Shown here: piece after piece, positions 4,801 through 59,955 of the stretch | Numbering within the stretch: position 1 is the stretch's first letter | How the letters are laid out: each line of letters starts with the position of its first letter | From: Haplodiscus bocki | Lineage: Eukaryota | NCBI GenBank assembly: GCA_965655095.1 | Contig: OZ296658.1 | Location: 69,130,001-69,194,000, forward strand | Reading direction: 5' to 3' | Length of the DNA: 64,000 bases | The notes under the pieces: model-generated | Database searches by the model: none | Told to the model about the DNA's origin: nothing | Seen by the model: the letters and a program-made list of their open reading frames with translations, nothing else | Program-made: the position numbers and the translations under genes

Positions 4801-4829
4801 ATGAAAAGAATATTTGAAAAACATTCACA

Positions 4830-6090: not shown

Positions 6091-6699
6091 CTTATGTCGT
6101 TCTTTTCAACTGAGTTGGATATTGATTTTTCAAATCTGAAAAGCCAATATTTTTTGATTAGAAAAACCCAAAGTGTACAAAAACTCTATAAAAACGGAAA
6201 ACACTTTTGTAATATTGATATAGCACTGTATTCTTGTAAAATTCTCTGTCTGTGTACTTTTTCAAGAGCAAGACTTTTCATTATAAGAATTTCATGATCT
6301 GTAATTTTGGACTGTTTTAACACATCTGGATCTCTTAATGATAGTAAAAACATTAGCGAGCGTTCATGTCTAAAGTCTTCAAGGAAAAATTTTGTTCCAT
6401 CTAATGGGTTTGGAATCCAGAGAGTAGTAATTCTCAGTTGTTCAGAATCTATTCAAATATTGATGCTTCTTCATTTTTAATATAATCAGGATAGTCTTCG
6501 TTTTGTTCTATTGAATATTTCTGCAAAGTCCATACATAGATCATTAATACCATTTTTTATATAACCACATTCATGTCAAAAATCAATATCGTTTTTAATT
6601 AAAAGCAATGATAACACAATCTTTCTATAGTCTGGAATTGATTTGAGCAAATCTTTCAATCAATTTGTTTCATTTATTGTTTCTGAAAGAGTCAGAGTG

Positions 6700-8060: not shown

Positions 8061-8129
8061 AATTGTTTTAAGAAAACAGCCAGACGAATGTTTCACAATA
8101 GCCGACCACATTATGTTTCCAAAATAGTG

Positions 8130-8520
8130 TTGTAATAATCCATTTTTTCTTTTACATAGAAAAAGTATAAACAATAGGTTCGACATAATCTAGAATTTGT
8201 ATTTTGTATTTTATATCTATGATAATTTAATGGTTTAGGTAATTGGTTGAGTGGAAGATTGTCTGGAGCTCCTCCAAAACTACCAGAAAAGAATTATTTC
8301 TTGGCAGAGCCAGCGTGACTTGTAGAGACTGCATTGTCTTTGATGTAAAAACAAGTCCAATGATTTCCACCTAGTGTTCCATTATCAATTTTTACGGAAT
8401 TTTTGTGTGAAAATATTTTTGAGTCTTCGGGATATTTACAAAAATTATAATTTCTTTGTTATTGACTTTCTGACATATTATCATCTTTCAAATTATATTT
8501 CTTCATAAGTTCTTTTATAT
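8130..8520 (-). pseudogene. Adenain-like (C5) cysteine maturation protease, disrupted
   Basis: IDNGTLGGNHWTCFYI (catalytic His-Trp, ~8345-8390) and KIQNTNSRLCRTYCLYFF (Q-xxx-S-xx-C catalytic motif, CG changed to CR, ~8155-8212). Confidence 0.85.
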
Positions 8521-8579
8521 TTAGAATCTTAATTTTTTTATTTGTATATTTTTAATTTCCTTATTTTTATCTCAAATAA

Positions 8580-9850
8580 AAGAAATTTCAGCTTTTTTAT
8601 TAACATCCGATATCATTTTCTAATTTGTCTATGTCTGATTAGTATTAAAAACAATCTAGCAATTTTAGTAGCACTTCTCTATTCCTCGAGAATATGAAGT
8701 TTCTTGGGATTAATATGATCAACTTGAAATCTTAAGTCAATGACTTGAATAAAATATTTTTTTTTCATGTCAGTTTATTTTTGAAAAAAATTAAGTACTT
8801 CTTCCCACACAAACTCTCCAAAAATAACTTAGGATCTCTATATTGTTCAAGATAGTCTTTCGAAGCAAAATCGATACTAACACCATCCGGTGGTTATCTC
8901 ACCCTATCAGTTTCAACATACATTTCCTTACATCCAAATTATCGAAAACTGCTATATTTTTTGCTTTGTTTGGAACTCCCATTCTAGCAGCTGTTTGGTG
9001 AACTACTATTAGATACTTTGGACTGTTAATATTTTGTGCAGAGCCTATCTCAATTTCATATTCCAACTGGGCATCAAAAGTTTTTCTGCCACTAGTCCAA
9101 CAATCAAATGATAAAGTAAAGCTACTTTTGGTTGAGTTATAAAAGTTTATTTGTGTTTCAGCATCGGGGAAGAATATTGGAACATATAAAAACAAATTAT
9201 AAATTTTTACTGTATCATTATTAGCTAATGTTGTGTGAATAATTTCCTGTAAATCAGCTGTTTTGAAAGTTAGATCAAAACCTAATTGTTTTAAATTTTT
9301 CAAAAGTTCAACAAAAACCAAAAAATTGTTCCATTGGAAGTTGCCAATTTATTTTTGCTTTGTTTGTAACTATGTCGTGGTTGTTAAGAAGAAGTTGTTT
9401 TAGTGATGTATTATTTATTTTTGCCCGAGATTCATCATTTTTATCGAAGTGAGACATTAAAACACCATCCTTAATTGTTGAAGCTCTCATAATTGTTGAA
9501 ACTTGTCCTACATATTTAAAATGCTCAATATCTGAACCACCCGCCGTTGATAATGTAGCTTCTTTGAAACAAAATGCTAAAGCCCTATTTACCAATCTAA
9601 TAGTATCACCATCAAGGAAGGTGCGATCTGCTTGGTTAGCTTCACCTTTTTCAACGATTTTTCGTTTTTGAAGGTATACATTACCTATTTGGTGATAGTT
9701 AGTATTCCCTCAAAAAATGACTTACATATTTTGATAAGAGTTGTCTAGATTTGCTCCTTGTTGATGAAAATTTTTAAAAAAGTCTTCTTTATCAATGAAA
9801 TATCAATCATTTCGTTATCTTTTAATTGAGAATTTTCAAGGCTCTTTTAT
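8580..9850 (-). pseudogene. Double-jelly-roll major capsid protein, frameshifted
   Basis: FHQQGANLDNS near the N-terminus, NRALAFCFKEATLST..DIEH..YVGQVSTIMR, LFLYVPIFFPD, SPKYLIVVHQT, AVFDNLDVRK and IQVIDLRFQ. Located between protease and ATPase. Confidence 0.8.
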
Positions 9851-16979: not shown

Positions 16980-17700
16980 TGAATGGTTTTGCAGATAGTC
17001 TTTTGTGACATGCAGCATTGATACTGTTTTGTGTTAGATCATTAATGATAAAGTTATGGCCTTCTTCCTGAGTAGGAAGACAGAATTTTCGAAAACTTTA
17101 CCGTTTTTGCTAATGCAACTTGCCAGGCAATTAGTTCTTTTTTTTTGAATTGTTAATAGTTAAAAAGTGATGGTTGATTGACGAAATGTCTCTAACGGTA
17201 GCCTTAGAAAGTTTGGAAAACCCATGATTTGTTCCAAAGACTGATCAAGATCAATTGATATGGCGACCTCTCTTGAAGAGCATCTGAAGGTTTTATCTTT
17301 TAAATTTCACCTAACATATTAAGTACTAACCCATTCTGTTGATTTTGTAGGTAATTTTACGGAGCTTTTGAATCGTTTATATTTTCAGAGCTCTCTTATT
17401 TTTTTCTCATAAATGAAAAAATTTAAGCGTTACTTGTTTTCTCATGACATCAATTAATTCTTCGAGTGAAGTGTTTGTCGTCATAGTGTTTTGTATAAGT
17501 TTGAATCGTATAAAGTTGTCACTGCATTTCAAAAATGGTTTCATAACCTGGTTGGTGCAGTTTTGCTGGAAAGGCTCGATTTTCTCAATGTTACCGAGAT
17601 TTCTACGGAGTATTTCAGAAAGTAAACTTCTCTTTTCATTAGCCTCCTTCCCGCAAACAATAACTCGATTTCGACCTTGGGTTTTTTAAGACTTTCATAA
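16980..17700 (-). pseudogene. Second, eroded A32-like packaging ATPase (element B)
   Basis: Decayed Walker A RVIVCGKEANEKR (17630-17667), LVLNML (Walker B-like), and FKRGRHIN...RDISSINHHFL (GRHxN...RxISLNxHY-type) at ~17160-17278. Confidence 0.55.
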
Positions 17701-17856
17701 ATCCTTTTTTGTAAGAATAATGCTGTCAAGTTTATATAATTAAAAATGTTTTTTTTTTCGTTTTCCTTTTTTTAAATATGGAAGGAAAATGATCCACTCA
17801 AAACCGAAATTGGACTTTTTAGTCTGTATGCCAAATGATACTGTCTAAAGGTACGA
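17662..17856 (+). repeat. ~195-bp direct repeat, left copy, flanking the LINE
   Basis: aactcgatttcgacctt...gatactgtctaaaggtacga recurs at 23318-23517 with a few substitutions and indels. Confidence 0.95.
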
Positions 17857-18055
17857 CTGAAATATTGAAATAGTGTAATTGAAATATTGAATTAATTTAG
17901 TTGGATTGTACTTATCACACAACAAATAAAGTAGTTAAATCGGAGAGTCTGTACATCCTACAAGGACATTTGATGTGTCGTATCCGACTCTTCGAGCCAA
18001 TGCCCAGGAAAGCCTCTTATTGTTCGAAATCTAAATCCTAAGGTCTCTGAAGTTA

Positions 18056-19120
18056 CTAAAAGAACAGTTGATGAAGAACTTGATTATCAGCAATATAGAG
18101 TTGTGTAAATTCAGCGAATTTTTGCCTTAAATTTACGCTATTCAAGCCTTCAGGTATTAAGTTATTGGTCATGAGCCAGTTATGTATTCTTAAGAGTCTA
18201 GTTTCTAGTGAGTTCCTCATGATAAGGGTTCGCGTTATCTTGGGCATTAGGCAATTTAGCTTGGTTCTTCTGGTTTTCATTATGTGCTGTTCTGGTAGTT
18301 CAGCCTTGAGAAAAATGCTAGGTGAGTTACCAGTCCGCTCTTCAAAATATTGCCGAAGTAGGCTCTGAATAAGTAGTTCGTAAACAGTTAGCAAATTAAA
18401 CTTTTTAAAGTGCCCAGAGACTGAGTCACAGTTTTTCATGAAAAAGATAGCGCGTGCAATACGTTTTTGTGCCTGATATATTGGGTGCAAACTAGTTTTA
18501 TTGGTACAACCGTATACTAAAATGCCGTTTTGAATCACCGATTGAGCAAAGGAAAAATAAAATCTAAGAAGTGTTTTTCTGCTATAATAGTGACGAGTTC
18601 TGTAAATCCGGCCACAAAATTTGGAAAGTTTTTTGCAAATGGCATCAGCATGTCCTTTGAAATTCAATTTTTTGTCCAAAATGACACCCAGATATTTACA
18701 GGAGTCATTTGGACTCATTGTGTCACGCAGGAGTTCAATGGAGTTCAACATGGGTTTCCCATGGCTCATAAAATGACTCTTCTTTGTGTTCAAGGTCAGT
18801 TTATTACTTTCAAACCATTTTGCCGTTTTATCAATGTCAAAAGAAAAATCAGAAGCGCAATCGATTCCAACTGTCGTAATATTGGTGTCGTCAGCAAACA
18901 AGATTATATTGCTTTTTTCGGCAACTTTTGGTAGATCATTAATGAAAAGAAGAAACAGGAGTGGACCTAGCACAGAACCTTGCGGAACACCGCAATTTAC
19001 TGGTTTCAATTCAGAAGTTTTTGAGCCAAACTTAATGTATTGAAATCGATCTTTCAAATAGTTTTTTAAAATGTCGAAAACTTTACCTCTCAATCCATAT
19101 TTCTCAATCTTATAGAGCAA
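18056..19120 (-). pseudogene. Duplicated C-terminal RT portion of LINE ORF2 (copy 1)
   Basis: GVPQGSVLGPLLF, LFADDT, KYLGV; near identical to the C-terminus of 20672-23080. Confidence 0.92.
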
Positions 19121-19363
19121 AATCTTATAGTCTGTATGCCAAATGATACTGTCTAAAGGTACGACTGAAATATTGAAATAGTGTAATTGAAATATTGAAT
19201 TAATTTAGTTGGATTGTACTTATCACACAACAAATAAAGTAGTTAAATCGGAGAGTCTGTACATCCTACAAGGACATTTGATGTGTCGTATCCGACTCTT
19301 CGAGCCAATGCCCAGGAAAGCCTCTTATTGTTCGAAATCTAAATCCTAAGGTCTCTGAAGTTA

Positions 19364-20428
19364 CTAAAAGAACAGTTGATGAAGAACTTGATTATCAGCA
19401 ATATAGAGTTGTGTAAATTCAGCGAATTTTTGCCTTAAATTTACGCTATTCAAGCCTTCAGGTATTAAGTTATTGGTCATGAGCCAGTTATGTATTCTTA
19501 AGAGTCTAGTTTCTAGTGAGTTCCTCATGATAAGGGTTCGCGTTATCTTGGGCATTAGGCAATTTAGCTTGGTTCTTCTGGTTTTCATTATGTGCTGTTC
19601 TGGTAGTTCAGCCTTGAGAAAAATGCTAGGTGAGTTACCAGTCCGCTCTTCAAAATATTGCCGAAGTAGGCTCTGAATAAGTAGTTCGTAAACAGTTAGC
19701 AAATTAAACTTTTTAAAGTGCCCAGAGACTGAGTCACAGTTTTTCATGAAAAAGATAGCGCGTGCAATACGTTTTTGTGCCTGATATATTGGGTGCAAAC
19801 TAGTTTTATTGGTACAACCGTATACTAAAATGCCGTTTTGAATCACCGATTGAGCAAAGGAAAAATAAAATCTAAGAAGTATTTTTCTGCTATAATAGTG
19901 ACGAGTTCTGTAAATCAGGCCACAAAATTTGGAAAGTTTTTTGCAAATGGCGTCAACATGTCCTTTGAAATTCAATTTTTTGTCCAAAATGACACCCAGA
20001 TATTTACAGGAGTCATTTGGACTCATTGTGTCACGCAGGAGTTCAATGGAGTTCAACATGGGTTTCCCATGGCTCATAAAATGACTCTTCTTTGTGTTCA
20101 AGGTCAATTTATTACTTTCAAACCATTTTGCCGTTTTATCAATGTCAAAAGAAAAATCAGAAGCGCAATCGATTCCAACTGTCGTAATATTGGTGTCGTC
20201 AGCAAACAAGATTATATTGCTTTTTTCGGCAACTTTTGGTAAATCATTAATGAAAAGAAGAAACATGAGTGGACCTAGCACAGAACCTTGCGGAACACCG
20301 CAATTTACTGGTTTCAATTCAGAAGTTTTTGACCCAAACTTAATGTATTGAAATCGATCTTTCAAATAGTTTTTTAAAATGTCGAAAACTTTACCTCTCA
20401 ATCCATATTTCTCAATCTTATAGAGCAA
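19364..20428 (-). pseudogene. Duplicated C-terminal RT portion of LINE ORF2 (copy 2)
   Basis: As copy 1, with a private change PLLF to PLMF. Confidence 0.92.
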
Positions 20429-20671
20429 AATCTTATAGTCTGTATGCCAAATGATACTGTCTAAAGGTACGACTGAAATATTGAAATAGTGTAATTGAAA
20501 TATTGAATTAATTTAGTTGGATTGTACTTATCACACAACAAATAAAGTAGTTAAATCGGAGAGTCTGTACATCCTACAAGGACATTTGATGTGTCGTATC
20601 CGACTCTTCGAGCCAATGCCCAGGAAAGCCTCTTATTGTTCGAAATCTAAATCCTAAGGTCTCTGAAGTTA

Positions 20672-23317
20672 CTAAAAGAACAGTTGATGAAGAACTTGAT
20701 TATCAGCAATATAGAGTTGTGTAAATTCAGCGAATTTTTGCCTTAAATTTACGCTATTCAAGCCTTCAGGTATTAAGTTATTGGTCATGAGCCAGTTATG
20801 TATTCTTAAGAGTCTAGTTTCTAGTGAGTTCCTCATGATAAGGGTTCGCGTTATCTTGGGCATTAGGCAATTTAGCTTGGTTCTTCTGGTTTTCATTATG
20901 TGCTGTTCTGGTAGTTCAGCCTTGAGAAAAATGCTAGGTGAGTTACCAGTCCGCTCTTCAAAATATTGCCGAAGTAGGCTCTGAATAAGTAGTTCGTAAA
21001 CAGTTAGCAAATTAAACTTTTTAAAGTGCCCAGAGACTGAGTCACAGTTTTTCATGAAAAAGATAGCGCGTGCAATACGTTTTTGTGCCTGATATATTGG
21101 GTGCAAACTAGTTTTATTGGTACAACCGTATACTAAAATGCCGTTTTGAATCACCGATTGAGCAAAGGAAAAATAAAATCTAAGAAGTATTTTTCTGCCA
21201 TAATAGTGACGAGTTCTGTAAATCAGGCCACAAAATTTGGAAAGTTTTTTGCAAATGGCATCAACATGTCCTTTGAAATTCAATTTTTTGTCCAAAATGA
21301 CACCCAGATATTTACAGGAGTCATTTGGACTCATTGTGTCACGCAGGAGTTCAATGGAGTTCAACATGGGTTTCCCATGGCTCATAAAATGACTCTTCTT
21401 TGTGTTCAAGGTCAATTTATTACTTTCAAACCATTTTGCCGTTTTATCAATGTCAAAAGAAGAATCAGAAGCGCAATCGATTCCAACTGTCGTAATATTG
21501 GTGTCGTCAGCAAACAAGATTATATTGCTTTTTTCGGCAACTTTTGGTAAATCATTAATGAAAAGAAGAAACAGGAGTGGACCTAGCACAGAACCTTGCG
21601 GAACACCGCAATTTACTGGTTTCAATTCAGAAGTTTTTGACCCAAACTTAATGTATTGAAATCGATCTTTCAAATAGTTTTTTAAAAAGTCGAAAACTTT
21701 ACCTCTCAATCCATATTTCTCAATCTTATAGAGCAAAATTTGGCGATCGACTATGTCAAATGCTTTGCTTAAATCCATAAAACAGGAGAATGCTTCTTTT
21801 CGAGCATCTAATCCTTTTCGCATTTCCTCAGTATTTTCAGCAATGGCATGCACGCATGAACGTTTTGATCGCAATCCAAATTGATTTTTATGCAGTTGAT
21901 TAGTCGTTTCAATGAAATGTGATATACGATTGAAGAGCAGCCGTTCGAAGACTTTTGATACAGAAGACAAAATACTTATGGGTCGATAACTATTGGGATC
22001 CGTTTTTTCACCCGATTTCCACAAAGGATTTATGGTAGCAACTTTAAGACAGGATGGGAAAACGCCCGAGTTGGTCATCGAGTTGAAAATGCTAGTTAAA
22101 TAGGGAACTAAAACTATTGCAGAAATTTTCAAAATTCTGTCATTGATACCATCGATCGAGCTACTTGTTTTATTTTGTAGGCTGGAGATGACTTTCAGTA
22201 TTTCGGAATCAATTGCGGGAAAGCAAAACATCGTTGTCGGACAATCATTCATCGAATTTGTGAATTCTTCACTGCTTGTCTTAAATTGGTCCAAATGATG
22301 TTGGCCAATTTGAGATAAGTGCAAATTCATTTCATCGATATCAATCGGAAAGTCATTTTTCATTTGGGTTTTTGTTATTTGTCTCAAGGAATCGAAGATC
22401 TGCTTGCTGGTTGGTTTTGATCCAATTTTTTTATTCAACTCTTGCCTTTTGCATGTTCTAATTGATTTTGTTACTTCATTACGAATGCTAGCGTATGCTT
22501 TTTTTTCCGGTGAAGGATGCTTCAAATACCTTTGGAACAGTTTATCTCGCTTCCTAATTTGTTTACTAATTTCAGGATTTACTGTCTTCCGATATCGTGT
22601 CACTGAAATCACAAACAAAGGAGCAAATCGCTCAATTGTTTCTAGAACAATTTTTGATATGCTTTCAAGTGTTTCATTTATGTCAATGGTCATATAGCAC
22701 ATTTGAGTTTTTGATCCAAAAGAAACAGATATTTGAGATTGAGTTTCTTCGTTTGAAAATACGCTATATTTGCGAACTTCAATTGTCTCGAACGATGTGG
22801 TGCTTTTACTTTGAAAATAGGCCGGCAATTCTGCTAGGACAATGTAATGATCGCTAATTTTGTTCAATAAAGTTACGGCAGATGTCATATATTTCATGGA
22901 AATATGATCGATGCAAGATTTAGAACTAGGAGTTTCTCTAGTTGGTAAATTATTGAGAACATAAAGACCATAACTACCCAAAAGATCAATGTAGGAGCTA
23001 GCTGATTTATCGGGACAGAATACATTAATATTGAAATCACCGCAAAAAATCAAATCCTTTTTGGAGTCATGTTGCAACAATAGAAGTTCAAGTTGATTGA
23101 GAAACGATTGGACTTGAGACTATGGGGTACGATATACCACCCAAATCAAACCCAGGACTCTTTTGTGCAGTGTTATTTCCACCGTGAGTGATTCAAATTC
23201 AGTGACAGTTCGGACCTCCGAGTATTGCAACGATTCAGCAATGTAAACTGCAATGCCTCCTCCTCTTTTTCCATCGCGATGTTTCCCTGTACTGGGATGA
23301 TAGCCGGGTAAATTAAA
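20672..23317 (-). pseudogene. LINE ORF2 (APE endonuclease + reverse transcriptase); 802-codon open stretch, disrupted 5' part
   Basis: APE motifs RGGGIAVYI (~23245-23270), VYRTP, CGDFN, CIDH, SDH; RT motifs YRPISIL, QFGLR, DLSKAFD, PQGSVLGP, FADD. Confidence 0.95.
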
Positions 23318-23517
23318 AACTCGGTTTCGACCTTAGGTTTTAGGTTTTTTAAGACTTTCAAAAATCCTTTTTTGTAAGAATAATGCTGTCAGGTTTATAT
23401 AATTAAAAATGTTTTTTTTTTCGTTTTTTTTTCTAAATATGGAAGGAAAATGATCCACTCAAAACCGAAATTGGACTTTTTAGTCTGTATGCCAAATGAT
23501 ACTGTCTAAAGGTACGA
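23318..23517 (+). repeat. ~200-bp direct repeat, right copy, flanking the LINE
   Basis: Matches 17662-17856; begins where LINE endonuclease homology ends. Confidence 0.95.
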
Positions 23518-26686: not shown

Positions 26687-26893
26687 TGTTATAAAATGAC
26701 AGCTGATTTGCTTTGTTTTAGCACAGGCAAATAAATAAAAGAGGGGGTGATGAAAGCAACATCAGATAACATAACATCAATAACAAACAGATCTTACGTT
26801 TTACGGGAGGAGTTTGATGACTAGTTTTTCGGCAGCGACTTTTTGGAACTCGTTTCTCCCTGGGAGATATTCGGGGGAGCAGACTTTTTTGCA
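26687..26893 (-). repeat. Possible 3' LTR (or part) preceded by a (GA)n polypurine tract
   Basis: On the minus strand GAGAGAGAGAGAGAGAG is followed by TG...; a candidate ...TAACA end is at 26687. No second copy to confirm. Confidence 0.3.
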
Positions 26894-29094
26894 CTCTCTC
26901 TCTCTCTCTCGCTCTAACACACTTTCTTCCTGTGCTGCGTCGATGTTGCTCAATTCCAATGCAGCGACAGCGGCAGTCTCTTCATCGTTGTGTCTGAATC
27001 GTTCCACATAGTTCTTCATTGCATATAGTTTCCCCATTTTTAGGGCCCAGCCTAACGATAACAAAAATCCCAAAGTAATCAAAGTGGCCCCACACGGCAG
27101 AATAACATCTTTCCAGATTTTCATCATAATTATTGTGTGCACTTCCTCGACCTCTTGCATAAATGGCCGTACTACTGCTGCTAACATTTCCTCAGTGATA
27201 CGGCGATCAGGCGAACCTGTTAAATTCAGCTTTAAGTGCGATAGCAAATTTTGATGGACATCTCCCATCAGTTCAGGAGGGATAACATCTTCTAATTCTT
27301 TCAGTCCTTCGAATAAGGGACGCAGCAAGGGGGTGGGTAATATTCGTACAATATCACTGGATTCTTGAATACATGTAAGGGGATCTGGGGTTAGGATTAA
27401 GCCAGCGTTCGGAAGTTGCAATCTACTTTTACAAGAGGGCTTGACTAGGCAACTTTGGCATCCCCGGGACGCGAATTTCTCCTTGCTCTGTCAAATTTTG
27501 CATTGTAAAATCTCCCTTCGCGGATGTTAAAAGATACGTCGAATCGAACAAATACAGGGCCTGCGGATGTTGAGGTAGCGCGACAACTTCTTGGGCACAC
27601 ATTTTCAGGACGGTAGCTGGAAGCTTAAAATATAAGCCGGTTAAGCAAGTCGTCTTCTGCGATTTAGTTGTTGAAAACGGTTGTTTGCAAAGTCTTAACC
27701 GGTGCGAGCCCCAGCAATGGGTAGAGAGTTCTTGCTCGGTGACTTCCGCAAAATTCGGTTTGTCCCAGGACATATGTAAGTGCGTTTTCTACAGATGGTA
27801 TTGTGTCGCACGTTCGGTCTGCGGTATCGGTTGGGGAATAGGTGTTGCTCGGAATACGTCGTGTACCCCGTGTCCCGTATAGAGAGGAATCTCAATTAGC
27901 AAATGCAACCTCTCGTCCGATATATAAGCGTCTCTCACAACTTCAAAGGTATAATACGCGGCTATTAGTTTTCTCGGAATCGCCTCGTTCAATCCGTACA
28001 CCTCAAACGTGTCTAAAATTTTCCAAGGGATTGTCGGAGGAATCAACGCTATCGGCAAGTATCCATGAAGTAACGAAGCCATCGCATCTTGCATTAAAGA
28101 AGCCAAATGGGCCAGCGAAATACGTTGCTGGTTTACATCGTTTACTAATCGACGATATTGAATCGTTAAATTCTGAAGAAACGCTGCTATGACAAGTGTG
28201 TTGCGGTGTCGGTCTTGTATATGTCTAGCGACGCACTCTCCTTTTCCTACGTAATCTTTAATCTCTTCAAGTACTCCTCTAATTGTCTCATTTAACATTT
28301 TTACATTCTTTTGAAGGCTTCTTTTCAAGATAGGGAGCCTTCTCTTCTCAACGTCGGCCGGCATTCTAACCATTATTGCTTCTAACAGCTTAGACTTCAA
28401 ATAGAAAACATTTTCTTCTAAATCTTTAACTTGCCTGGCAAAGGCTTCTATTTTCTTCCGCTCGTCTTCCTTACAAAGTGAACCAAAAGGGACTAATTTG
28501 TCAACAAAACATGAAAATTTGTCTGCAATCGGGGCCGTAAATGGTCTGAGGAAAATTCTGGATAGTTCACTTCCTAGCCCGGTTCCAACAATTGGCACTA
28601 ACAGAGATCTCTTGTACCTATTCGGTCTTTCAAACGTTTGATCTTGCAAAGAGCTATTCAAAAACACAGTCAGCGATTGTCTCATAATCTCGAGATCCGT
28701 TTTGAAAATCTGATGACTTTGAAAAACCTCAGCTAAATTATCTCGCAACAATTGCTTCCAATACGAAAACAAATGCGTGTCGGCGCATTCGTGTTGGAAC
28801 ATCCTAAGGTCTAGGTCATTCAATTCAAACAAAGCTTGATCCAAGATCTGATTCAAGGGTTTGGGATCAAGCTGGGGTATCTCGGGAAAAGAAATGTAAG
28901 TGCACAAGGTTTTAAGAGCTTTTACTAACACTACCGGAGGCTCAAGTGTAAACGCAGCGCCTGAAAATGAGTGGTATCCATTAACAATTCCCAGAGTGTC
29001 TTGTCGTCTCTGGAAGTCCCACTCATCGAAATCATCAACGGGATTGGTAGCTCCTATCGCCGCAAAAACTAGGAAAAACAACAAATCTCCTCAT
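26801..29094 (-). pseudogene. env: env: class I fusion glycoprotein of the F type (baculovirus F/errantivirus env-like), ~750 aa when repaired
   Basis: Signal peptide LLFFLVFAAIGA, furin site RYKR|SLLVPIVGTGLG, heptad-rich segment, HGYLPIALIPP, Cys-rich region, TM VILPCGATLITLGFLLSLGWAL, several N-x-S/T sites. One in-frame stop at 27789, a frameshift near 27465, and a probable 1-nt shift just after the ATG at 29094. Confidence 0.88.
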
Positions 29095-29150
29095 CCTAAA
29101 AGTTAGAAGAAGTTAAGGAAAACGAAACATAAAGGAAAATTGAGGTAGTT
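29095..29150 (-). promoter_or_regulatory. Putative env splice acceptor
   Basis: Minus strand ...ttccttaacttcttctaacttttAG|G ATG: polypyrimidine tract, YTAAC branch-like motifs and AG immediately before the env start. Confidence 0.6.
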
Positions 29151-29420: not shown

Positions 29421-31282
29421 TTATTTACTTTCATTAATAAATTCGTCTATCCCAAATCGAACAGGTGGTCTCCTAACTCTACGCTTTCCGCCTGTCGGGA
29501 CATCCGAATCTCGTTGCGATTCATTTTGTGAATCATGGTCAGTGTCTAAAAGTCTCTCGGGTGCATCGTTACGCACGGTACTCTTTTCAATCTCGCTGTT
29601 TTCTGAGTCATCGCCCGGTATTGTTTCGTAGGCGGTCAATTGCGGCGAAGTCTGGCGTTCAATATTCTCGTCAGATGATACATTTTCAAATTCCGACTCG
29701 GAGTATTGTTCTACGATCTCTGGTAATTGGCTAAGCGTTACTTTAAGCCTATTTCTCGCGGCTCGCGACTCTGCCGTCGTCGGTTTACGTACATGGAACG
29801 GGCGGTCTTCAATTTTCTCCTCAGTTTCTATTTCGTTCAGAATCTCTTCGTAAATCGGAGGGGGTCGGTCTTTAAGCCTAACGGATTGTCGTACTTCGGG
29901 ATCTCCTCTATACAGTTTCAAGCAGTTAAAATGTACTTTCTGCCATTTTTCCTTATTTCCTCGCTTGCAAGTCATGTAAGTGACTTCACTCGTTCGGCTA
30001 AGAACCTCGAAAGGACCGTGCCAAGGCAAATAGAACTTTCTGGACTTCGCCTTGTGAGGTTCGAACAACCAAACAAGGTCTCCTTTTTTAAACGGTTCGC
30101 CATGTATTTCTCTATTAAAATACTCTCTTTGTCGTCTTTGTTCGGTTCCCATCGTCATTTGCGCTTTTCTATGAATTTCATATAAGCGTTCGCTTAACTC
30201 CTCTGCGTTCTCGCCTAACTTCAATCTCGGGTCTCCCGGAGGTTTTGGGACAAATAAATCTATGGGGTATTGCGCTTCCCTCCCGAAAATCATGGAGTAC
30301 GGCGTCGCTCCAATAGTTCGGTGAATGGTGGTGTTATACACAAAAGAAATATAAGGCAAATACACGTCCCACTCCTGCGGTTTTTCAGCACAATACTTTG
30401 AAAGCGTGTCGGCAATGACTCTATTAAATTTCTCGACCTGTCCATTTCCTTGGGGATGGTACGGCATTGTTATCGTTTTCTCAATCATAAAATTTTGGCA
30501 AATGACGTGCATTGATTCACTATTAAAATTCTAACCTTGATCAGTATGAATCACGTCCGGCGCTCCAACTTTCATTATCCACTCGTCTATGATGGCGCTC
30601 GCCACCGTTGCAGCTGTCATGTCTTGTAAAGCCACCGTTACGGCGTATTTCGTAAACAAATCACTCATAACTAGAATATATCTGGCCCTGGACTTCCTAG
30701 CTAACATCACTGGTCCCAAAATATCTGCCGCCATTGTTCTAAAGGCTCCGTGAACCAAAAAATTTTGCAATTCCGCTTTTCGTTTAATTCCTGCGGTTGA
30801 CCTGGCTGGACAACGATCACAATTAGCTACATGTCTTTCTACACTCGTCTTAAGCGATGGCCACCAAAATCTCTGTTTTATCCTTGCTAATGTTTTCTCG
30901 ACGCCAAAATGTCCACCACTTATTGGAGAATCGTGCAATTAAAACAAAATTTTGTTTCTCATTTCTTTAGGAATAATCGCTTGCCAGGATTCAATTACTT
31001 GGATACTAGGTTTCCATTTCCTATACAAAACTCCGTTAGATGTCGCAAGATCCTCCCAGTTACTCCAAAGTTTAACGCTTCGAGGTTCCCCCAAGATAAG
31101 GCCTCCTCCTTGGAGATTGGGTTCTTTCCAAAGGTACAATGTGAATCTTCTAAGTTCACACCGTATCGTTCGGGTGCACAAATAATGATCGTAATTGCGG
31201 AGTCGGCCCGCTGTCGTTTCGCAAGTTCACTGTCGGACCTAGTCCACGAAATTCGTTCTTTTACACTTTTAGTCATTAACAT
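29421..31282 (-). pseudogene. Gypsy integrase (HHCC zinc finger, DDE core, GPY/F module), disrupted
   Basis: HDSPISGGHFG...C..C, ADILGP, HTDQG, PYHPQGNGQVEKFN, WHGPFEV, VHFN, RRPPVRFG. Confidence 0.95.
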
Positions 31283-31379
31283 TTCCTATTGTGTTACTAC
31301 TGCGCAATGATTCCGTTTGCTAGAGGTCTTTTCACGGGAGTTAGAGGGGATTGGATAAAAATCTTGTTCGGTTTCGGGA

Positions 31380-31795
31380 GTATATACAGTTAAGGTGCAG
31401 TAAACATCTTGAAAAATCGACTAGAGACAAATAGCAACGTTCGTCCACTCCAATCGGTCATCAACAACTCCGATTCTAGGCACTGCGAAACACGTAACGC
31501 CTTTCAGCGCCGCATGCACAATCATTTCTTCTAGACATGATTTCAAAACATCATATTTTGCAACGTCGGTATACTTTTCTTTAGTCATCATTAAATAGAT
31601 ATATCTCGAATGCTCGCTGTCCCAATACACTAACATTCCTCCAACGCGATTTACAGAGTTTTCCGCCGGCCTTAAATGCGAATATCTAACAACAAAGTCC
31701 GTCATTGGCGAAGATTTAACTCGCATGTCGCCTGAGACGCGAAAAATCAACTAACTAGACGATTCCATAAAATTTCCCGTTGCATATTTCACTTC
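31380..31795 (-). pseudogene. TARG1/OARD1 (Poa1p-like) macrodomain embedded in pol
   Basis: RYIYLMMTKEKYTDVAKYDVLKSCLEEMIVHAALKGVTCFAVPRIGVVDDRLEWTNVAICL*SIFQDVYCTLTVY parallels the TARG1 pattern RYIYYLITK...TYENLQKSLEAM..HC..NGVT.LSMPRIGCGLDRLQW..V...I..VF.....ITVY. In frame with the downstream pol segment (31282). Confidence 0.88.
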
Positions 31796-31979
31796 TTCCC
31801 TCGGAGGATGTGGGATGTGCATTCTAGCGTGCGCTATTACATCGTCATTTTTTTTTTCGAGAAACTACCGCTATCTAAATCTTCTTGAGCACCACCGAGT
31901 GCTTTTTCCATAGTTTGAAACTCCGGGATTTGACCTCGCAACTCTTCTTCTTCACCTTCTTTCCATTCTGGCTTCTCAT

Positions 31980-33338
31980 TGGGCCTTCTACTAAGACCGT
32001 CAACGTTACAATGTTTTTCTCCCGGCCTATGAAGTATTCGGTAATTTTACTCTTGCATCTTCTGAATCATTCGGAACGTCATTCCATCGGCGTTTTGTCT
32101 AAATAGCCACTGGAGGCTCGCGTGATCGGTCCGGACTTTACATTGTGACCCGTAAAAATAAGGACGGAACCATTGCATCATTTGTAAAATACCTAGCGAT
32201 TCACGTTTTGTTGTGGCGTAATTTACTTCCGTTTTAGTCAAAACTCTCGACTCAAAAGCTATCGGACGCTCTTCTCCATCAATTATTTGCAACAGAACAG
32301 CACCGAGTGCCGTTTCGCTTGCGTCTGTATCAATCACAAAGGGATGGCGAAAATTTGGGAACGCTAAAATTGCGGCTTGCAACAATCTCGTTTTTAATAA
32401 CTGGAACGCATCTTGATGTTGTTTTTCCCACGTAAATTTTACTCCTTTACTAGTCAATCTGTACAGAGGTTTGGAGACTTCTGCGAAATTTTTCACAAAC
32501 TTCCGATAGTAATTAGAAAACGCCGTTAAGGATCTCACTTGGGTCACCGTCTTCGGACGCTCTCAATCTCTGACTGCTTCCAGTTTCTTCGGATTTGGTT
32601 TAATCCCCGTTTTATCTAATACATGGCCCGATAATTCACTTGACTTTGAAACAAATCGCATTTCTTGGGCTTCAATTTCAATCCGGCCGCGCGCAATTTC
32701 AGAAAAACCTTCTCTAAGTGCTCTAGGTGTTCCGCTGGCGTCTCACTATACACTAATAAATCATCCAGGAAAATGAAGACATGTTTAAAGAGGTCCTCTT
32801 TGAAAATTTCATTCATGAGTCGTTGAAAAGTTGCCGGCGCATTCGTCAATCCAAACGGCATTTTCACAAATTCGTAAAGACCACCCTCCGGGGTACAAAA
32901 AGCAGTTTTATGACTGTCCTTTTCTGCTAATGGCACTTGCCGATAGCCACTGGCTAAATCAAGCGACGAAAAATATCCTGCGCCTTGCAATGCGTCAATC
33001 GTCTCTCCTATTCGTGGAAGGGGATACGCGTCCTTCGTCGTTATCTCGTTCAACTTACGATAATCTATACACATTCGGTTCGTTCCGTCTTTCTTGGGGA
33101 CCAATAAAATCGGATTACTATACGAACTTTTACTAGGGACGATTACTCCTTTGTCTAACATTTCCTTGATTTCTTCCTGCACCGCAGGCAATTTATATAA
33201 AGCGACTTTGTAGGAAGCAATTTTAAAAGGCGGGTTGTCGTTAGTATCTATAAAATGTTCCGTTCCAATAGCAGTTCCGAGCGGATCCTTTGCCTGCGCA
33301 AAAACGTCGCGGTAAATACCAATCAAGTTAAATATCAA
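31980..33338 (-). pseudogene. Gypsy reverse transcriptase and RNase H, disrupted
   Basis: RMCIDYRKLN, YPLPRI, LDLASGY, KTAF, MPFGLTNAPATFQRLM, FLDDLL; RNase H IDTDAS, NYATTKRE, RTDH, HRPG..H.NVDGLSR. Confidence 0.96.
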
Positions 33339-34639
33339 TCATTTCAGCATCAATTTAAAAAGAGTGGCAATTAGTCGAGGGGCAGTTGATGGAGTCGTAG
33401 CTTGCGTACAAAACTTGTACGGGATCCTTTATTTACGCAAACGAGCTTCTTCTCTGACAGTCGTGTGGCGATGTTAAAGGATGTTGTGGCTTTTGCCGAC
33501 AGTGTCATAGTGAGTGGAGACTCTGACCCATTGTCTGAGTTTGGGGATGGCTGCAGTCAGCAGGATGTGACAGATTTGCAATCTTGCTGGGAGAAAACAG
33601 TTGTGCGACGCAACATGCCCAAAGATACTAGTGAGCGTTGGTTTGCGGCCCAGATTGCAAGTTTTCCATCAGCGAGTCCATCTGTTGCACGTACTGGTGT
33701 CCGAATTTCTCATATCGTGGAGGAGGGACAAGTGGAGTACGTTGCTGGTCCGGAGCGTGCTGCCGGCTCATCATGCGCAGTCAAAAGTCCCGTGATCGAT
33801 TGAGAGAGGAAGGCACACTTGATGTCTTCACGTATAGCACGCAAGTGTTTTTAGGTGACCAGCCGTTTCTATCCCTCGTAAGCAGAACATTATAGAGGAT
33901 CTTTCGTTCAGTGCTGCTCTCGGTGGTGAGGCTTCCGTCGACCAGCCCCTGTGTATGAATTTGGAAAAAAATGTAAATTCCCATCAAAGACTACCTCTTG
34001 CTCTTTTGACTGCCATTCTTTTTCCGTAAGTTTTTATTTTGTTTGGATTTGGAATCGTATTATTTAGTTTGATTTTACCATAGAAAGCCGTGTTTTCGTG
34101 GCAGCTAATAGTGATGAGCAAGTTAATAAGTTGCTGGGGAGTATCCACAAAGAGATAGAAGAAAATCAGTAGTTGCTCCTTATTGGTACCGTAACACGTT
34201 CTTAGGTACCCCTGGAATGTTTACGTATGCGTTTCGTAGTATGTACTCGGGTAAATTGGAGTGTCATTGGTATATTATCAGACGGTTGATATATGTAGTC
34301 ATCGTTCAAATTTCGCTTAGACATATAACGTAGACGAAATTTTGTACTGTGCGGGTTGCTAGGAGTTGGTTTAAGTTGCACCGAACTCATTTCCATATCA
34401 AGTTCTGCGTAATGATCCGTATCCGTTACGTCACGTGATCCGGCTCGTCGAGGGAAATGTTCTGGGTATTTTCTGGTTCTGATCATCGTGTACTGCACGT
34501 TCCGGCATTCTAGCGCTCAGAATCGATTGTCACTTCACGTGGGTTAGGTGGGCTCGGTTCGTTTTGATCATTGTCAAAAAACAGGTTTTCGAAAATCAGA
34601 CGCCCATACCTGGCGTACAAATCATCATGTTTGATGATA

Positions 34640-36900
34640 ACTTCGGTATAGGATTTCCGTTTTTGTCACGTGGTTTGAACGTCAGGTATGGTTTCTCGAG
34701 GCGTGAACGGTCGCAGTTGCCTGAGATGAAGGACCTGCGTTTCGTTCGTTCCGATCTTGCGCACTAAAAGTTTGTTATTTGGTAAAGACTTCTCAACGAT
34801 GTAGGGCCCAATCCAACTTAATACTGTGAAATTTAATTTACTACCTTGATTGTCTGATTCAAGTTGCAGCACATAGACCTAATCGCGGTCTTTGGGATCA
34901 GTGGCAGTTGCTTTTTTGTCGTAGTAGGATTTGTACTTGCATTACATTTTCCCCGGCATCTAGAAAAAGCATTTCTGTTTTTTCAAGGACGTCTTGGGCA
35001 ATCTGTGACTGAAGTGTAGATGGTGTCTGCATGCGGTTGTCGATTTTTCATTCCAGGACTTTGAACGAAACACATCTGCGGAACACTTGCTTGCACCCAA
35101 TGCTTGTGTCATAGGATTTGCTGTAGTGTAGGACAGCCAGGTTGATGTACTTGTGCCACATTGATCTTGGTTTAATTGTTTCTATTTTCAATGCCTTTTT
35201 GAGTGCTGCATGTAATCTTTTGAGCGAGCCAAAGGTCTCTGCAACTTGATTGTGGCATTTTCTACGGTTTTGTTGCGAGCATTTGCTACTTCGTGTATCA
35301 TTTGGGACACAAAAGCTGATCCTTCAATAGAAAGGATCGTCCCCGACAAGTATGTATGCTTAGTCACGATATTGATTATGACTCTGGGAACTGCTTTAAC
35401 AACTTGGTTCGTTGTAGAGTAGGAAAACAAAAATCTAGAGAACACGACCTCGGTTGTAACGATGTTTTAGTAGCCATTGGACGGAGGTAGTTCCGGAACC
35501 AAATCAATTTGCATGGCAGCTTCTGGCCCTGTGATGTGTTGACTAGGGTTCTGCAGGAATCGGCGGGTGAGTCTGTTATAGATTCTTGATTCCATGATGC
35601 ATTGCACACAGGAAATGACCCAGTGTCTGTCTAATTAGGCCATGTTTGGGTAGAAGTACTTGTATGTGTACGCTGTTATTGTCTCGTTGATTCCAGGGTC
35701 TCTAAAAAATTCTCCGTGGAGGCTTCGATGAACTTCCTAAACAAGGTGCTTTGATCTGAGAAATTGGTAGTATTTGAGGCTTCCAGTTTGGTGGTAGTAG
35801 GCCTTCTTTGAGGATTGGTAAGCTTTGGCTGTAAATAGTTTTTACCGTCTTTGGCTGTGAGTTCCACCTCAAACTCCCTGTTCATCCCAATGTTCATTCT
35901 GTGTCTGACAATAACCATATGCTAATCAACCAGATTAACCTAAATTACGTGTTTTTCAGCTGCCGTGAACAGTGTGTCTTTTCAATCAATTCCTCAAGCA
36001 ATCTCATTCTGCAGTCGGCATTGTCTGTGGGGTTAATTTCTTCGTTTTCTTGTATACCATTCTATTCCTTAAGGATTCGTGTCTGAATTGATGTATCACT
36101 TGTATCACGAAATTCAGTTGTCGGAAACCAGAAGGTATTGATTTCCTGTTCTGGTTCGTTCGTTCGATGGTTTTTATTAAGGTAGGTAATCAAATCAGTA
36201 TCACCCTCTGCAATCATACTGAGGGTTGCCGAGGCCACAGGTTTGATGAACTTAAATCGCTCCGGAATGACGAGGAAAAACTCGGAAATTTGTTTGTTTC
36301 TTTTGATCAAATAAGGTAATTCCGTTGTGTTAGTTACTCTGACTGCCATCTTTTCGTCAAGGATTTTTGACATTGAATGAAAAATCAACAAAGTTGCTGT
36401 TTCAGTGCACTTATAGGGTGGGGTCACAGTGCCTGTTGTGTTCCATTCTGATGAATGATCAACAAAAACTGTGATTGTTTTTGTTAACATGGGTGGAGCT
36501 GCCATGGTGTCGCCAGTAAGGACAGATTCAGCTTTAGCACTTCTTTCGCCCGCGGCGGTTTTGACTTGCAATGTCAAGTGGGGAAAATGAATGAGACCTT
36601 ACGCAGTGTTCATGCTTACAGTGTTGGGTCTTATGAAGTGCAAACCTGTTTTTGGCCCTGTCAAACTCTTTATAACGACAAAATGTTTTGCAAAATGTTG
36701 TTGCCAAAGTCATACTTAAGTGTGCCTCTTGGAAAGGGTTTCCCAAACTGGCCATTTGCTACTTGTATTCAAAAGTTTGAAGAGTCGTCAATTTTGAATG
36801 TAGTGAGTTGGGTTTGTGGCTTGATCCAGTCCAATTCATTTGGGCGATTGCACTGATTCAAGTTCTTGAGTCTACTTGGGCATTTATAAATAGGCCACTT
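34640..36900 (-). pseudogene. pol remnants of second gypsy element (protease, beta-rich linker, truncated RT, integrase)
   Basis: ORFs 36062-36577, 35676-35918, 35188-35445 (FSRFLFSY...GSAFVSQ) and 34666-34872 (WIGPY). Confidence 0.75.
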
Positions 36901-37499
36901 TTTAAGTCCAGAAGAATTTAAAGACCTTCTTTTTTGCCTTTCCAAAGTGTAGTGGAGGTCAATGGGAGATTCAATTCATTGGTCTACTCGTCCCTCATCG
37001 ACCATTCTTCGATGCGTGGGTTTGTTTTTGTGAGAGAAAGAATAATGTTAACTTAGTTAAGGGTAGTCATGATGTGCTTATCTGTTCCTTGGATGTTGGT
37101 TTTACAACTGTTGGAGCTGTTGAGGAACGGTACTGGTCCGTTTCCAGTTTTTCCTCCGTACTGTTACTTAGTGTTTCTGGAGTTTTGAAAATGGAGTCCC
37201 CTTGGCGGCGACGTTTGACTTGTTACGTCACATAGCTGCATGTTTTCAAGTATTTGAGTCCTTTGAGTAGTTTGGTTTGCTAAATCAGTACTAATAGTGG
37301 ATAATTTGAGGTGGTTAATATTCTTTGCGAGGGTTGCTGCCAGACCACTTCGGGAATCGGTGGAAGTTCTGTATCATTGGTGGTCTTCGGTCTGGCAAAT
37401 GGAATTCCGAAGCAAGAACGTGGGGTTTACACTTTAATTTTTGGGCCACAGACTAGACAGTTTCGTTTGTATTGTCTTGTGTGTCCTGTTGTTAATTTT

Positions 37500-38999
37500 G
37501 GCCCTGTCATATGGGTTTTTTATGCCAAATAAGCGGTATATTTGCTGAAATGGCTCAAAAATAGCATTTCTTTTTGGAGTGGTTGGTTTTGCCTAAAGTT
37601 TCAGAGGGTGGGTAGACAAGTCTTGGCTTTTTGTCATTTCGGTGGTTAGTTCTGTTAGCGTTCTTAATAATGGCAATCTTGTTGCTAGGTTTAGAGTTTG
37701 TTTGACTAGTGGCATGTTTTTCACCATTGTCGCCAGCAATTTTTTTGTAACATTCGTTTTTTTCTTTCTCTCTTCTGGGTTGAGGGTATTGATTCCGGTA
37801 GTGGCCTGGCTTTTTGAAGTGATGACAGGTTGGCTTGGGTTTTTAAGGAGTTGGTTTTGCGGCATGTACGTCACAGTATTCATTTGCAGTTCATCTGGGG
37901 CTTCCAAACTGTTCAACTTCAACTCTTTTTCACGGTGTAACACACTCTGTTCATAGGTGCCATTCTCCGAACCAGCCTAATTTATAGAATTTTCCAGGAG
38001 AAGAGGCATTCTGGCATACGTGAACTTTTGAAAAAGTGCGTGGGCATCAACTCTGAATGCGTTGTTGGCAAATTTCTTGTGTTCCTCCAAAAAATCAATT
38101 AACTTTTGGTTCGCTGGGTTGAAGACTAGTCGTTGAAAGTTGTGTTATGCTGTAGCAATTGACTAAAGTTTCAGACTTTTTCATGGGAACACAGTGAAAA
38201 TTGCTCCCACATTCTCTCTGCTTGTGCTGCTGATTTTTTTTCAACCTGTGCAGCGAGTCACCGCACATGAGAGAGTGGAAATGTTTCCTTCATCTTGTTC
38301 TTTGAGCTAATTGTGGATTTCTATACTTGTTTGGAACAAACCTTCGAACATTTCGATCTTCTTTGACTTCTCTTCGCAGGTGGGCATTGTTGTCGTGAGC
38401 GATTTAGGCATTTTGGAAAACATGATAACGTTATTGTTGAAGTTGTCAAAGTTGCTGTTGCTTGCCAACTGTTAATTAGTCAAAAAAATCTCGTCTGCTT
38501 CAATGGCGCAGGGGTGTTCTCACTGCGGAATTGTGGACGAATTGTGGAGCGCGCCTTAATGTGTTTGTCTGAAGACGTCCCCGGGGCAAAAAGCAATCCC
38601 TTCTTCAACTTCTGTCACCACGTGAGAGGTCTCGTCTGAGTCTGAATCTTAAAATACTGGTGCGACAGGCAGTGAACTCCAATTCCGGATGCCGAACAAT
38701 CTGCGAGCGATCTCCAATTGGTTCCTGGTTGTCTACGTCAGTGTTCCGGAATGTTTCTGGCACAGTTCGGGAAGTGTCCGTATTTACAGGTGCATGATAA
38801 ATCCGTCTAATTAGGACAGAACTCACAAGATGCGGGACCATTTTTTCAGTGACCCAGCCCTCAATCCCCTCAGAAACGTGCGCGATGTAACCCTCAGTAA
38901 GTTCAGGAACGGATGTGTTCTGTGAATCGCTGCTTCTAAGATGTTCCTATAATTCCTTGAAACAGCTGCCAACTTTCCTTTGTTTCCCAATGTTGCCAT
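37500..38999 (-). pseudogene. gag of second gypsy element, disrupted
   Basis: TTMPTCEEKSKKIEMFEGLFQT, FHSLMCGD, FQRLVFNPANQKLIDFLEE, NGTYEQSVLHREKELKLNSLEAPDEL, TCHHFKKPGHY. Confidence 0.7.
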
Positions 39000-40786: not shown

Positions 40787-42744
40787 CCCGGGTCGAACTT
40801 TTTTGGGTAAACGCCGCTATTTTTCCGGTAGAGTGGCGTAAACGCCGCTAACGCTGTTAACTTACAAGCAAAACGCCGTTAACGCCTTTATACCGACAAG
40901 GAACGCCGTTAACGCCGTTAGCGTTCCGGTTGAACGCCGTTAACGCTGTTATACCAGAAAAAAACTTGTGTCTACAAAAAATCTGATCTTCTCACTCCAT
41001 GAAGAATGAGAAACTCATGGTCAATCATTTACTTGACAAAGGATTACGAAGCTTTTGGAGCCTATTTCCTCGAAAGTGTGGGAGAACTGCAGGGGACTGG
41101 AGTCTGGGCCTGAACGTGGTGGCATTGGTAGTGTCATTGAACTTGCTATGGCCAAGCAAGTTCACAAAAATATTGATCATTTTACGATTTGACTAGTTGG
41201 AGTCTTGCAGAAGTTTTGTCAGTTTTAACCTGGAGGCTTCTCTCAAAAAAATTTCAGTTTATTTCTTCATAGTTACAAGATCCATCTTCAGTTGTTGCCT
41301 TTGAGGTTTTGCGGTTCCTTTGTTTTGTTCTCTAATGCCAAACGTGCAAGTTATGAGTTTTTGGTCTGAAATAATCAAACAGTTATTAGGTGAAACCCGT
41401 GTTTTCGGAAGGACCTTCATTTTTTGTATTTTTTTGTAATGGTGGAGCTCTGGATTTGCTCTGGCACGTGGTAGAACTGTCAGTGTCCTTGACCATGCCA
41501 CGACCAGCTGAGACTACATCAAAGTTGAACATGTCAAGACTTGATTTCTTAATTCTGGTTTTGCAAAGTTCCACCGGTTTTGATCCGATTTCCTTTTTTT
41601 AAAGTTTTGTTAAGTTTAACTCTTACTGTTTACCAAGGCCATATCCAATTTTTGTATTTAGAATCCTTGTGTTCGACTGGGTTTTTTTTGAAAGGTCGAG
41701 AAAAATGTTTCTGTTCTTTTTATCGTCCTAAATCTTCAAACTGTTTTCCCGTTAAAACCCATGTTTTCGATAGGTCCTTCTGTTCTTGTACTTTTTGTTC
41801 GTAATGATGGGGCTATGAATTTGCGCCTGCACGTGGTAGCCCTTCCAGCGTCATTGTCCTTGTCATGACCAGCCAAGACTACATAAAAGTTGAACATGTC
41901 AGGGCTTGCTTTCTTAGTTCTAGTCTTGCCAAATTCCAACAGTTTTAATTTCAATTGTTGCATTCAGGGGCCGTGTGTGTCACGATGTTGTTTGGTCTAG
42001 GCTAGAAATGTATTACTTTTTTTCGTCTGAAATGTTCAAATTGTTTTTTCGTGAAACTAAATTTCGGAAGGCCCTTCATTTTTTGTACTTTTGTTTGTAA
42101 TCATAGGGCTTTGACTTTGCGCCTGAAACTATTTGCTCTGCCAGCGTAAGTGACCGTGGCGCGACCAAAAAAGACTTCACAAAATTGAACATTTACAGAC
42201 TGGATTTGCGAGATCGAATTTTTCGACAGTTATAAGTTCAACAATGTTTTTTTTTCGCTTTACATTTTATTATTTTGGTGCTATAATTCATAGTTTTTCC
42301 TTTTTAGGAGCTGTTGTTCGCTGTGGCTGATTTCATTTGGGAAGTTGGAGCTTCCAGATGTTGCGAGTTTACTTACGGAGAAAATGGTCCCCGTTTTTTT
42401 CCGATATACCAGCGTTAAAACTCGGCTGGTATTTTACTGGTATAGCAACGGAAGCTACCGCCGCTATTTTTCCAGTTAAACGCCGCTGACCCCACTATTT
42501 TTCCGGTTCAACGCCGTTAACGCCATTTTTTTCCGGTTCAACTCCGTTAACGCCGCTATTTTTCCGGTTCAACGCCGTTAACGTCGCTATTTTTCCGGTT
42601 CAACGACGTTAACGCCGCTATTTTTTCCGGTTCAACGCCGTTAACGCCACTATTTTTTTTGGTTAATAACGGCTTCTGTGGCTAATTTTGACCGCCGTTA
42701 ACGCCTTTATACCGGAAAAATTTGGGCTATTATTTCGACCCGGG
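40787..42744. mobile_element. Non-autonomous TIR DNA transposon (CACTA/EnSpm-like architecture)
   Basis: Perfect 11-bp TIR cccgggtcgaa...ttcgacccggg, with many aacgccgttaacgc subterminal repeats at both ends. No clear TSD. Confidence 0.75.
42455..42715. repeat. ~30-bp subterminal tandem repeat (ttttccggttcaacgccgttaacgccgcta)n
   Basis: About 6-7 adjacent copies without spacers; related motifs at 40810-40950. Confidence 0.9.
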
Positions 42745-59900: not shown

Positions 59901-59955
59901 TAACACAATGTACGTTTTCAGTTTTTGAAAACTAGAATGTTCGTTTTTCGTCACT

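Follow-up and report, generated by a model that had tools for sequence, protein, structure and literature searches.

An env-carrying Ty3/gypsy family whose Pol contains a TARG1-type macrodomain with a putatively remodelled ADP-ribose pocket

Introduction

A close counterpart of the domain reported here is the human ADP-ribose hydrolase TARG1/OARD1 (C6orf130; PDB 4j5q, 2lgr). According to the accessible sections of PMC9967889, K84 and D125 are its catalytic pair, K84 forming a covalent lysyl intermediate, and an equivalent catalytic Lys is found in the macrodomain of DarG (PDB 5m3i, 7omu). The available part of PMC6397177 divides the TARG1 pocket into a distal-ribose subsite (C33, S35, T83, K84 and D125) and a set of adenosine and pyrophosphate contacts (D20, L21, F22, I44 and the GxG loop), and the ligand loops referred to below are those defined there. 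Substitutions G43E, I44E and G123E abolish both ADP-ribose binding and catalysis, and RNA binding by TARG1 is independent of the ADP-ribose pocket, as stated in the accessible text of PMC5928194.

Macrodomains are also known from viruses and retroelements. The accessible part of PMC4977317 cites Basta et al. 2009 for macrodomains in fish epsilon-like endogenous retroviruses, which like the element described below are enveloped LTR retroelements with a macrodomain, but belong to the Retroviridae and not to Ty3/gypsy; they are compared here by citation alone. Loss of macrodomain activity is recurrent in viruses, and in the dead macrodomains of SARS-CoV-2 (Mac2/Mac3) and of some alphaviruses the fold is kept within a polyprotein and loop residues are lost (PMC10221186, in its accessible sections); these domains are of another macrodomain class and reside in RNA viruses, unlike the family studied here. 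Transposon macrodomains are unmentioned in the accessible portions of PMC7729036 and PMC10221186.

Regarding element architecture, the nearest systems are the 'ancient errantiviruses' of Chary and Hayashi (PMC13524379), in which pol is followed by env and RNase H by a small pre-integrase domain. As described in the available text, their RNase H-integrase bridge consists of pseudo-RNase H and mini domains, a macrodomain being absent from the survey, and their F-type env comprises a signal peptide, a furin site, a fusion peptide or fusion-peptide-like stretch and a membrane anchor. In the text of that paper 'macro' and 'ADP' occur 0 times; in 7 supplementary files 'OARD1' and 'ADP-ribose' occur 0 times and 'macro' 10 times, the 4 of these 10 that were inspected being species names. 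No report of an RT-RNase H-macrodomain-integrase order in Ty3/gypsy elements was found in the openly available literature, the search not extending to subscription journals or to the Repbase, Dfam and GyDB collections. Such macrodomain-bearing Pols may well have been annotated automatically. What we regard as new is that an env-carrying Ty3/gypsy family has fixed in its Pol a TARG1-derived macrodomain whose pocket is apparently remodelled.

Results and Discussion

The window, i.e. the whole stretch of 64,000 nucleotides of Haplodiscus bocki DNA analysed here (contig OZ296658.1, positions 69,130,001 to 69,194,000), carries on its minus strand a Ty3/gypsy element which encodes, in the standard code, a reverse transcriptase (RT), RNase H, a macrodomain, a pre-integrase region, an integrase and an env-like ORF. 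The Ty3/gypsy RT occupies positions 32616..33338 (Pfam RVT_1, E 1e-35; 91% to the natural Pol P0012) and is followed by the RT connection, RNase H and a linker at 31849..32628 (Pfam RT_RNaseH, E 3e-29, and tblastn), which lie in a frame of their own with two stops, RNase H reaching to about 31980 and ending at NVDGLSR. In this copy the reading frame changes from that of RNase H to that of the macrodomain at a 10-base A-run (31848..31857), and with an intact natural Pol as tblastn query the RNase H frame stops at 31849 and the macrodomain frame begins at 31861, in agreement with the original prediction of a shift at an A-run near 31850. The macrodomain itself spans 141 codons (31379..31801) and is interrupted by in-frame TAG stops at 31751-31753 and 31421-31423, which went unmentioned in that prediction. 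Downstream, a variable linker and a helical pre-integrase region (30940..31378; one stop, a frameshift near 31100), which likely corresponds to the 'mini' domain of PMC13524379, lead to the integrase at 29424..30938, with its HHCC, core and C-terminal domains and an acidic tail (Pfam Integrase_H2C2, rve and Integrase_p58_C), also broken by stops. The expectation that the macrodomain would be in frame with the downstream segment thus holds into the pre-integrase region, but a stop and the frameshift near 31100 precede the integrase frame.

The order RT-RNase H-integrase in the window is of the Ty3 type as judged by Pfam, and in the relative P0052, whose best PDB match is the Ty3 Gag-Pol (E 9e-121), a protease lies ahead of RT. 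In the window the element is truncated upstream of RT, at about 33340; tblastn with the protease region of the intact relative gave no match within the window, and no paired LTRs were found among its direct repeats. The reading frame of the Pol region shifts near 32630, again at the A-run (31848-31857) and once more near 31100, and there are stops in RNase H, the linker and the integrase. This copy is dead, with two stops inside the macrodomain and frameshifts on both sides of it.

The third ORF, env-like in keeping with the enveloped element originally proposed, is located at 26801..29110 on the minus strand, with one stop and two frameshifts in this copy and 91% to a natural 753-aa ORF (P0344). 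Its unbroken relatives, of 745-755 aa, account for 109 matches among 8000 scored candidates, P0344 standing for 472 members and P0352 for 206. Among five full-length relatives, a hydrophobic N-terminus exceeds the threshold in three, a C-terminal membrane segment is present in all five and an RxKR/RxRR furin site followed by an apolar stretch in two; conserved cysteines and N-glycosylation sites are also found. By these sequence features the ORF would match the F-type env anatomy of PMC13524379. Searches for its fold or family gave no Pfam or PDB match; ESM Atlas returned Baculo_F and Fusion_gly at 0.77-0.81, which we treat as a lead only, and a single-sequence model was unusable (pLDDT 37.8).

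The domain between RNase H and integrase is a TARG1/OARD1-type macrodomain, as originally proposed. A phmmer search of PDB with the window domain retrieved five TARG1 chains at E 2-3e-13 and no other chain below 0.5 (8 matches at E<=10), the best E value being 2e-13, and an 11-sequence profile matched TARG1 at E 2e-21. Pfam Macro gave E 0.09-0.26, below the cut-off; Pfam alone being insufficient, the assignment was made by PDB, profile and fold searches. An AlphaFold model built from a 61-row alignment (pLDDT 92.3) was compared with 48,161 chains, and the highest scores were those of TARG1 (Z 18.1, rmsd 2.6, 138 residues, 29% structural identity) and of the M. tuberculosis DarG (Z 18.1, rmsd 1.9, 135 residues; Z 16.0 with the second DarG structure), followed by Poa1p (Z 15.2) and the other macrodomain classes (Z at most 13.3). 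Because TARG1-like proteins from outside the family supplied 49 of the 61 rows, the model leans towards a TARG1-like fold and does not count as evidence separate from the sequence comparison. Kinship with DarG did not emerge by sequence (E 0.27-0.71 against DarG chains, and 1e-13 to 1e-21 against TARG1), and the window domain further differs from DarG in the loss of the phosphate loop and in not belonging to a toxin-antitoxin locus. In ESM Atlas the macrodomain query scored 0.91 with generic macro clusters from phages and bacteria.

The macrodomain is a trait of the family. As query it retrieved 72 of 132 longer candidates and 128 of 129 of similar length (120 of these 128 matches are listed), those listed all coming from ENA and all family matches being retrieved through the macrodomain itself. 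RT, RNase H, macrodomain and integrase occur in one unbroken frame in three natural Pol ORFs, one per subfamily: P0012 (512 member sequences, 85%), P0038 (207, 66%) and P0052 (624, 56%, with protease), the members being sequences and not genomes or species; in P0012 the macrodomain occupies residues 465-605. These candidate matches and unbroken ORFs rule out both a one-copy artefact or chance insertion and a separate host gene nested in the element. Among the three subfamilies the macrodomain is 57-67% identical, with 0 gap columns in 141 and 72 of the 141 positions invariant; the flanking linkers are 45-55% and 32-37% identical, with gaps, and RT, RNase H and the integrase core are 81-83%, 85-92% and 77-82% identical, respectively. 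The sites that do not vary among the subfamilies are also the conserved ones in outside homologues (68 versus 68 columns; Mann-Whitney p 5e-6). The mean BLOSUM score of differing pairs is -0.19 for the macrodomain, -0.01 and -0.51 for the linkers and +0.58 for RT; the macrodomain substitutions being no more conservative than those of the linkers, the constraint on the domain is modest. With 15-17 Lys and Arg against 18-21 Asp and Glu, the domain is slightly acidic.

In order to describe the pocket, residues are numbered as in TARG1, following the phmmer alignment of the window domain. The Lys of YIYLMMTK (31580..31582) and the Asp of PRIGVVDDRL do align with K84 and D125, as originally stated; that prediction weighed the catalytic dyad and not the binding loops. 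Loop 1, the equivalent of G41-A45 (31703..31717), has its glycine-rich motif replaced, with Pro at the I44 position, and loop 3 (31457..31465) has Val at G123 and Asp at L124, keeping Asp at D125, so that the GxG signature is lost. Similarity to TARG1 comprises K84, D125, C33, S35, P118 and G121, and the family departs from it in H32, G43, I44, G123 and L124, besides being embedded in a Pol polyprotein.

For comparison, 1.84 billion representatives were searched with a profile. This yielded 1453 matches at E<=0.001, and the best 150 of the 1453 were used; of the 148 new ones, 17 were placed in the family on visual inspection of motifs and flanks, a partly circular step, and 131 were left as outside homologues. 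Among the direct copies listed, the K84 equivalent is kept in 127/153 and that of D125 in 129/146 of those covering the sites, many of them decayed, and G43 is found in 0/126, I44 in 0/127 and G123 in 0/146. The same residues are missing from the family representatives (G43 0/10, I44 0/10, G123 0/14, H32 0/9) and prevail in outside homologues among the matches listed (G43 107/109, I44 99/109, G123 126/129, H32 104/109). Likewise, the TARG1 pattern TKx(30,35)Px[IL]GxGxD, taken from the accessible part of PMC6397177, fits 0/209 family proteins, 79 of which span the motif, and 117/131 outside homologues, 124 of which span it (among the matches listed in both cases); the window copy fails it too.

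The replacements are fixed, V123 and D124 being found in 14/14 family representatives, and at the G43 position one subfamily has Glu and the two others Ser, Ala or Thr. In one decayed copy, P0034, the Gly of loop 3 stands at position 122 and not 123. Among the 32 columns at least 85% conserved in the outside homologues listed, 19 are kept and 10 are lost in all three subfamilies, and 8 of these 10 fall in the three ligand loops (H32, G43, I44, A45, the Lys-Pro after K84, G123 and L124). The equivalents of C33, S35, D37, K84, G121 and D125 are invariant in the three subfamilies, T83 being Val in one; the distal-ribose set is largely kept and most of the adenosine and pyrophosphate set is lost. 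As judged from these alignments, the ADP-ribose pocket is rebuilt throughout the family with the Lys84/Asp125 dyad kept, and the hydrolase activity originally proposed finds no support, since G43, I44 and G123 are replaced family-wide.

Phylogenetic analysis was based on a quick tree of 118 domains and a careful tree of 30 of these, chosen by hand. In the careful tree the family is recovered as a single clade (100/100), whose stem measures 4.5 changes per column, against 0.3-0.6 within the clade; the long stem and short inner branches point to a burst of change followed by stabilisation. Both trees place the family on a very long stem, and neither gave a supported sister, or donor, of its macrodomain.

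Among the outside matches listed, 4 of 71 proteins of at least 200 aa (60 shorter ones were left out) carry clear LTR-retroelement domains by Pfam. These are P0268, a Ty3/gypsy Pol with the macrodomain at residues 599-742; P0246, with the macrodomain after the integrase (1346-1487); P0321, where it follows the integrase zinc finger (248-391); and P0340, where it precedes a retroviral-type protease (105-238). All four are single predicted ORFs from other retroelement lineages, differ in where the macrodomain sits in Gag-Pol and fit the intact TARG1 pattern. Since P0268 has the order RT-RNase H-macrodomain-integrase, this layout is not unique to the window's family, from which P0268 is set apart by its intact pocket pattern and an identity of 36-38%. 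In the careful tree two starred branches place its macrodomain among TARG1-like proteins that do not belong to retroelements, which suggests an independent capture, although a tree in which it is held with the window's family is not rejected (AU p 0.167). Repeated capture of TARG1-type domains by LTR elements is likely on this comparison, and, judging by their predicted pockets, an active eraser is rather to be sought in these four proteins than in the window's family.

Other architectures were seen among the outside homologues. In DNA ligase III-like proteins (P0219, P0272, P0235, P0214, P0325, P0329 and others) an inserted TARG1-like macrodomain separates the ligase core from the LIG3 BRCT domain, and they cluster in the quick tree. 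In long proteins such as P0199, P0204, P0249, P0311, P0320 and relatives the TARG1-like domain precedes a second macro-like domain that is degenerate, and some of these proteins have a PAM2 motif; it is among them that the P0268 domain nests. In single predicted ORFs (P0335, P0269, P0279, P0271, P0341) a TARG1-like domain appears to be fused to uracil-DNA glycosylase, NADAR, TBP, an HMG box or a GDSL esterase.

The explanation that we favour, with barely better than an even chance, is that a captured hydrolase turned into a pseudo-enzyme, which Pol has kept as a module without catalysis. On this view, a TARG1-type hydrolase would have been taken into the pol of an ancestor of the family, after RNase H and ahead of the pre-integrase domain; the captured domain would have changed fast, losing the loops by which the AMP-pyrophosphate half of ADP-ribose is held, and the new form of the pocket would then have been fixed and conserved. 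The unbroken natural ORFs show that the domain is made as part of Pol, and for this reason its packaging with RT and integrase is expected; protease may release it at the variable linkers. Its role would most likely be that of a folded, non-catalytic binder of RNA, cDNA or a partner protein, in the particle or the pre-integration complex, and presumably not that of an eraser of host ADP-ribose marks. In favour of the pseudo-enzyme we count its presence in three unbroken subfamilies, its gap-free alignment among them, the agreement of its invariant sites with those conserved outside, the complete failure of the TARG1 pattern, the fixed and loop-centred replacements, the long stem, the pocket-independent RNA binding of TARG1 and the recurrent loss of macrodomain activity in viruses. 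Against it count the retention of K84 and D125, the fact that the published inactivating mutants are to Glu, so that Ser, Ala or Thr at 43 and Val at 123 might be tolerated, the slightly acidic charge, atypical for a nucleic-acid binder, and the modest constraint.

The same modest constraint would also fit a domain without present function that survives in frame inside Pol because deletions, stops or unfolding changes would damage RT or integrase, selection keeping the fold alone. Conservation that follows the structural core, amino-acid changes that are not conservative and an identity far below that of RT, RNase H and the integrase core (77-92%) agree with such a passenger, to which we give a small but real probability; nevertheless, it accounts poorly for an unvarying length of 141 residues across three subfamilies with RT differences of 17-19%, for new ligand-loop residues that are fixed and not drifting, and for the retention of K84 and D125 at the surface. 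That retention, together with the invariant C33, S35, D37 and G121, the split of the pocket into distal-ribose and adenosine/pyrophosphate subsites (accessible part of PMC6397177) and the covalent lysyl intermediate of K84 (PMC9967889, likewise), would be accommodated by a re-purposed enzyme in which the catalytic half is kept and the AMP-pyrophosphate half closed, the Lys attacking a ring-opened, ADP-less ribose-like substrate, for example an abasic site or a 5'-deoxyribose phosphate, either in newly made cDNA or at the gaps left by integration. We find this improbable: T83 is Val in one subfamily, and with 72/141 positions invariant chance alone would leave any four given sites unchanged in about 7 of 100 cases.

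A hydrolase still active in the manner of TARG1 or DarG, stripping host ADP-ribose from cDNA or element proteins and countering a PARP-type defence, would be consistent with the TARG1 fold, the Lys/Asp dyad and the family-wide retention, and with the intact pattern of the same domain type in P0268, P0246, P0321 and P0340, which also renders ADP-ribosylation pressure on LTR elements plausible. This reading is nonetheless improbable for the window's family, in which all three residues needed for ADP-ribose binding are replaced throughout, the TARG1 pattern is found in 0/209 proteins among the matches listed, Asp124 would place a negative charge beside the phosphate site and Pro44 would remove a backbone amide, as general knowledge of macrodomains suggests. 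An anti-PARP enzyme in this family is thus unlikely, and the counter-PARP story would fit the four other retroelement proteins better. A long shot combines both ideas: the repeated capture of TARG1-type domains by LTR Pols would mark an unrecognised ADP-ribosylation front on which retroelements and their animal hosts meet, and here would have yielded a new dyad-keeping catalyst acting on ADP-less ribose in damaged cDNA or integration intermediates.

With the macrodomain, the stretch that bridges RNase H and integrase in env-carrying Ty3/gypsy elements gains a domain absent from the latest survey, as far as the accessible parts of PMC13524379 go, and a captured ADP-ribose eraser was probably disarmed, yet kept in a successful family. 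The rebuilt pocket removes the main ground for deducing a PARP-type host defence from this family, and the ADP-ribosylation defence originally proposed for the host is left unsupported by it, the binding loops being replaced. Taken with P0268, P0246, P0321 and P0340, the family offers a natural pair, active and disarmed by predicted pocket, that lets one ask whether ADP-ribosylation restricts retrotransposons and what ligand-less macrodomains do.

The window contains further repeats. On the minus strand, pieces at about 34000-38900 look by eye like integrase and zinc-knuckle fragments of another LTR element in advanced decay, and are without Pfam or tblastn support. On the plus strand, 17700-23500 holds a LINE-type element with endonuclease and RT, including an 815-aa ORF at 20672-23119 (Pfam RVT_1, E 8e-36); ahead of the element its own 3' part is present twice in tandem, as near-identical copies of 1308 bp. 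AT-rich regions at 1900-9700 and 59900-63100 have in common segments 72-77% identical, about 58.7 kb apart; they gave no Pfam match, and their broken ORFs we take to resemble a Polinton-type DNA element. A run of 200 N lies at 59956-60155. Finally, 40800-42660 contains palindrome-rich repeats of 30-31 bp, clustered at two places 1.5 kb apart.
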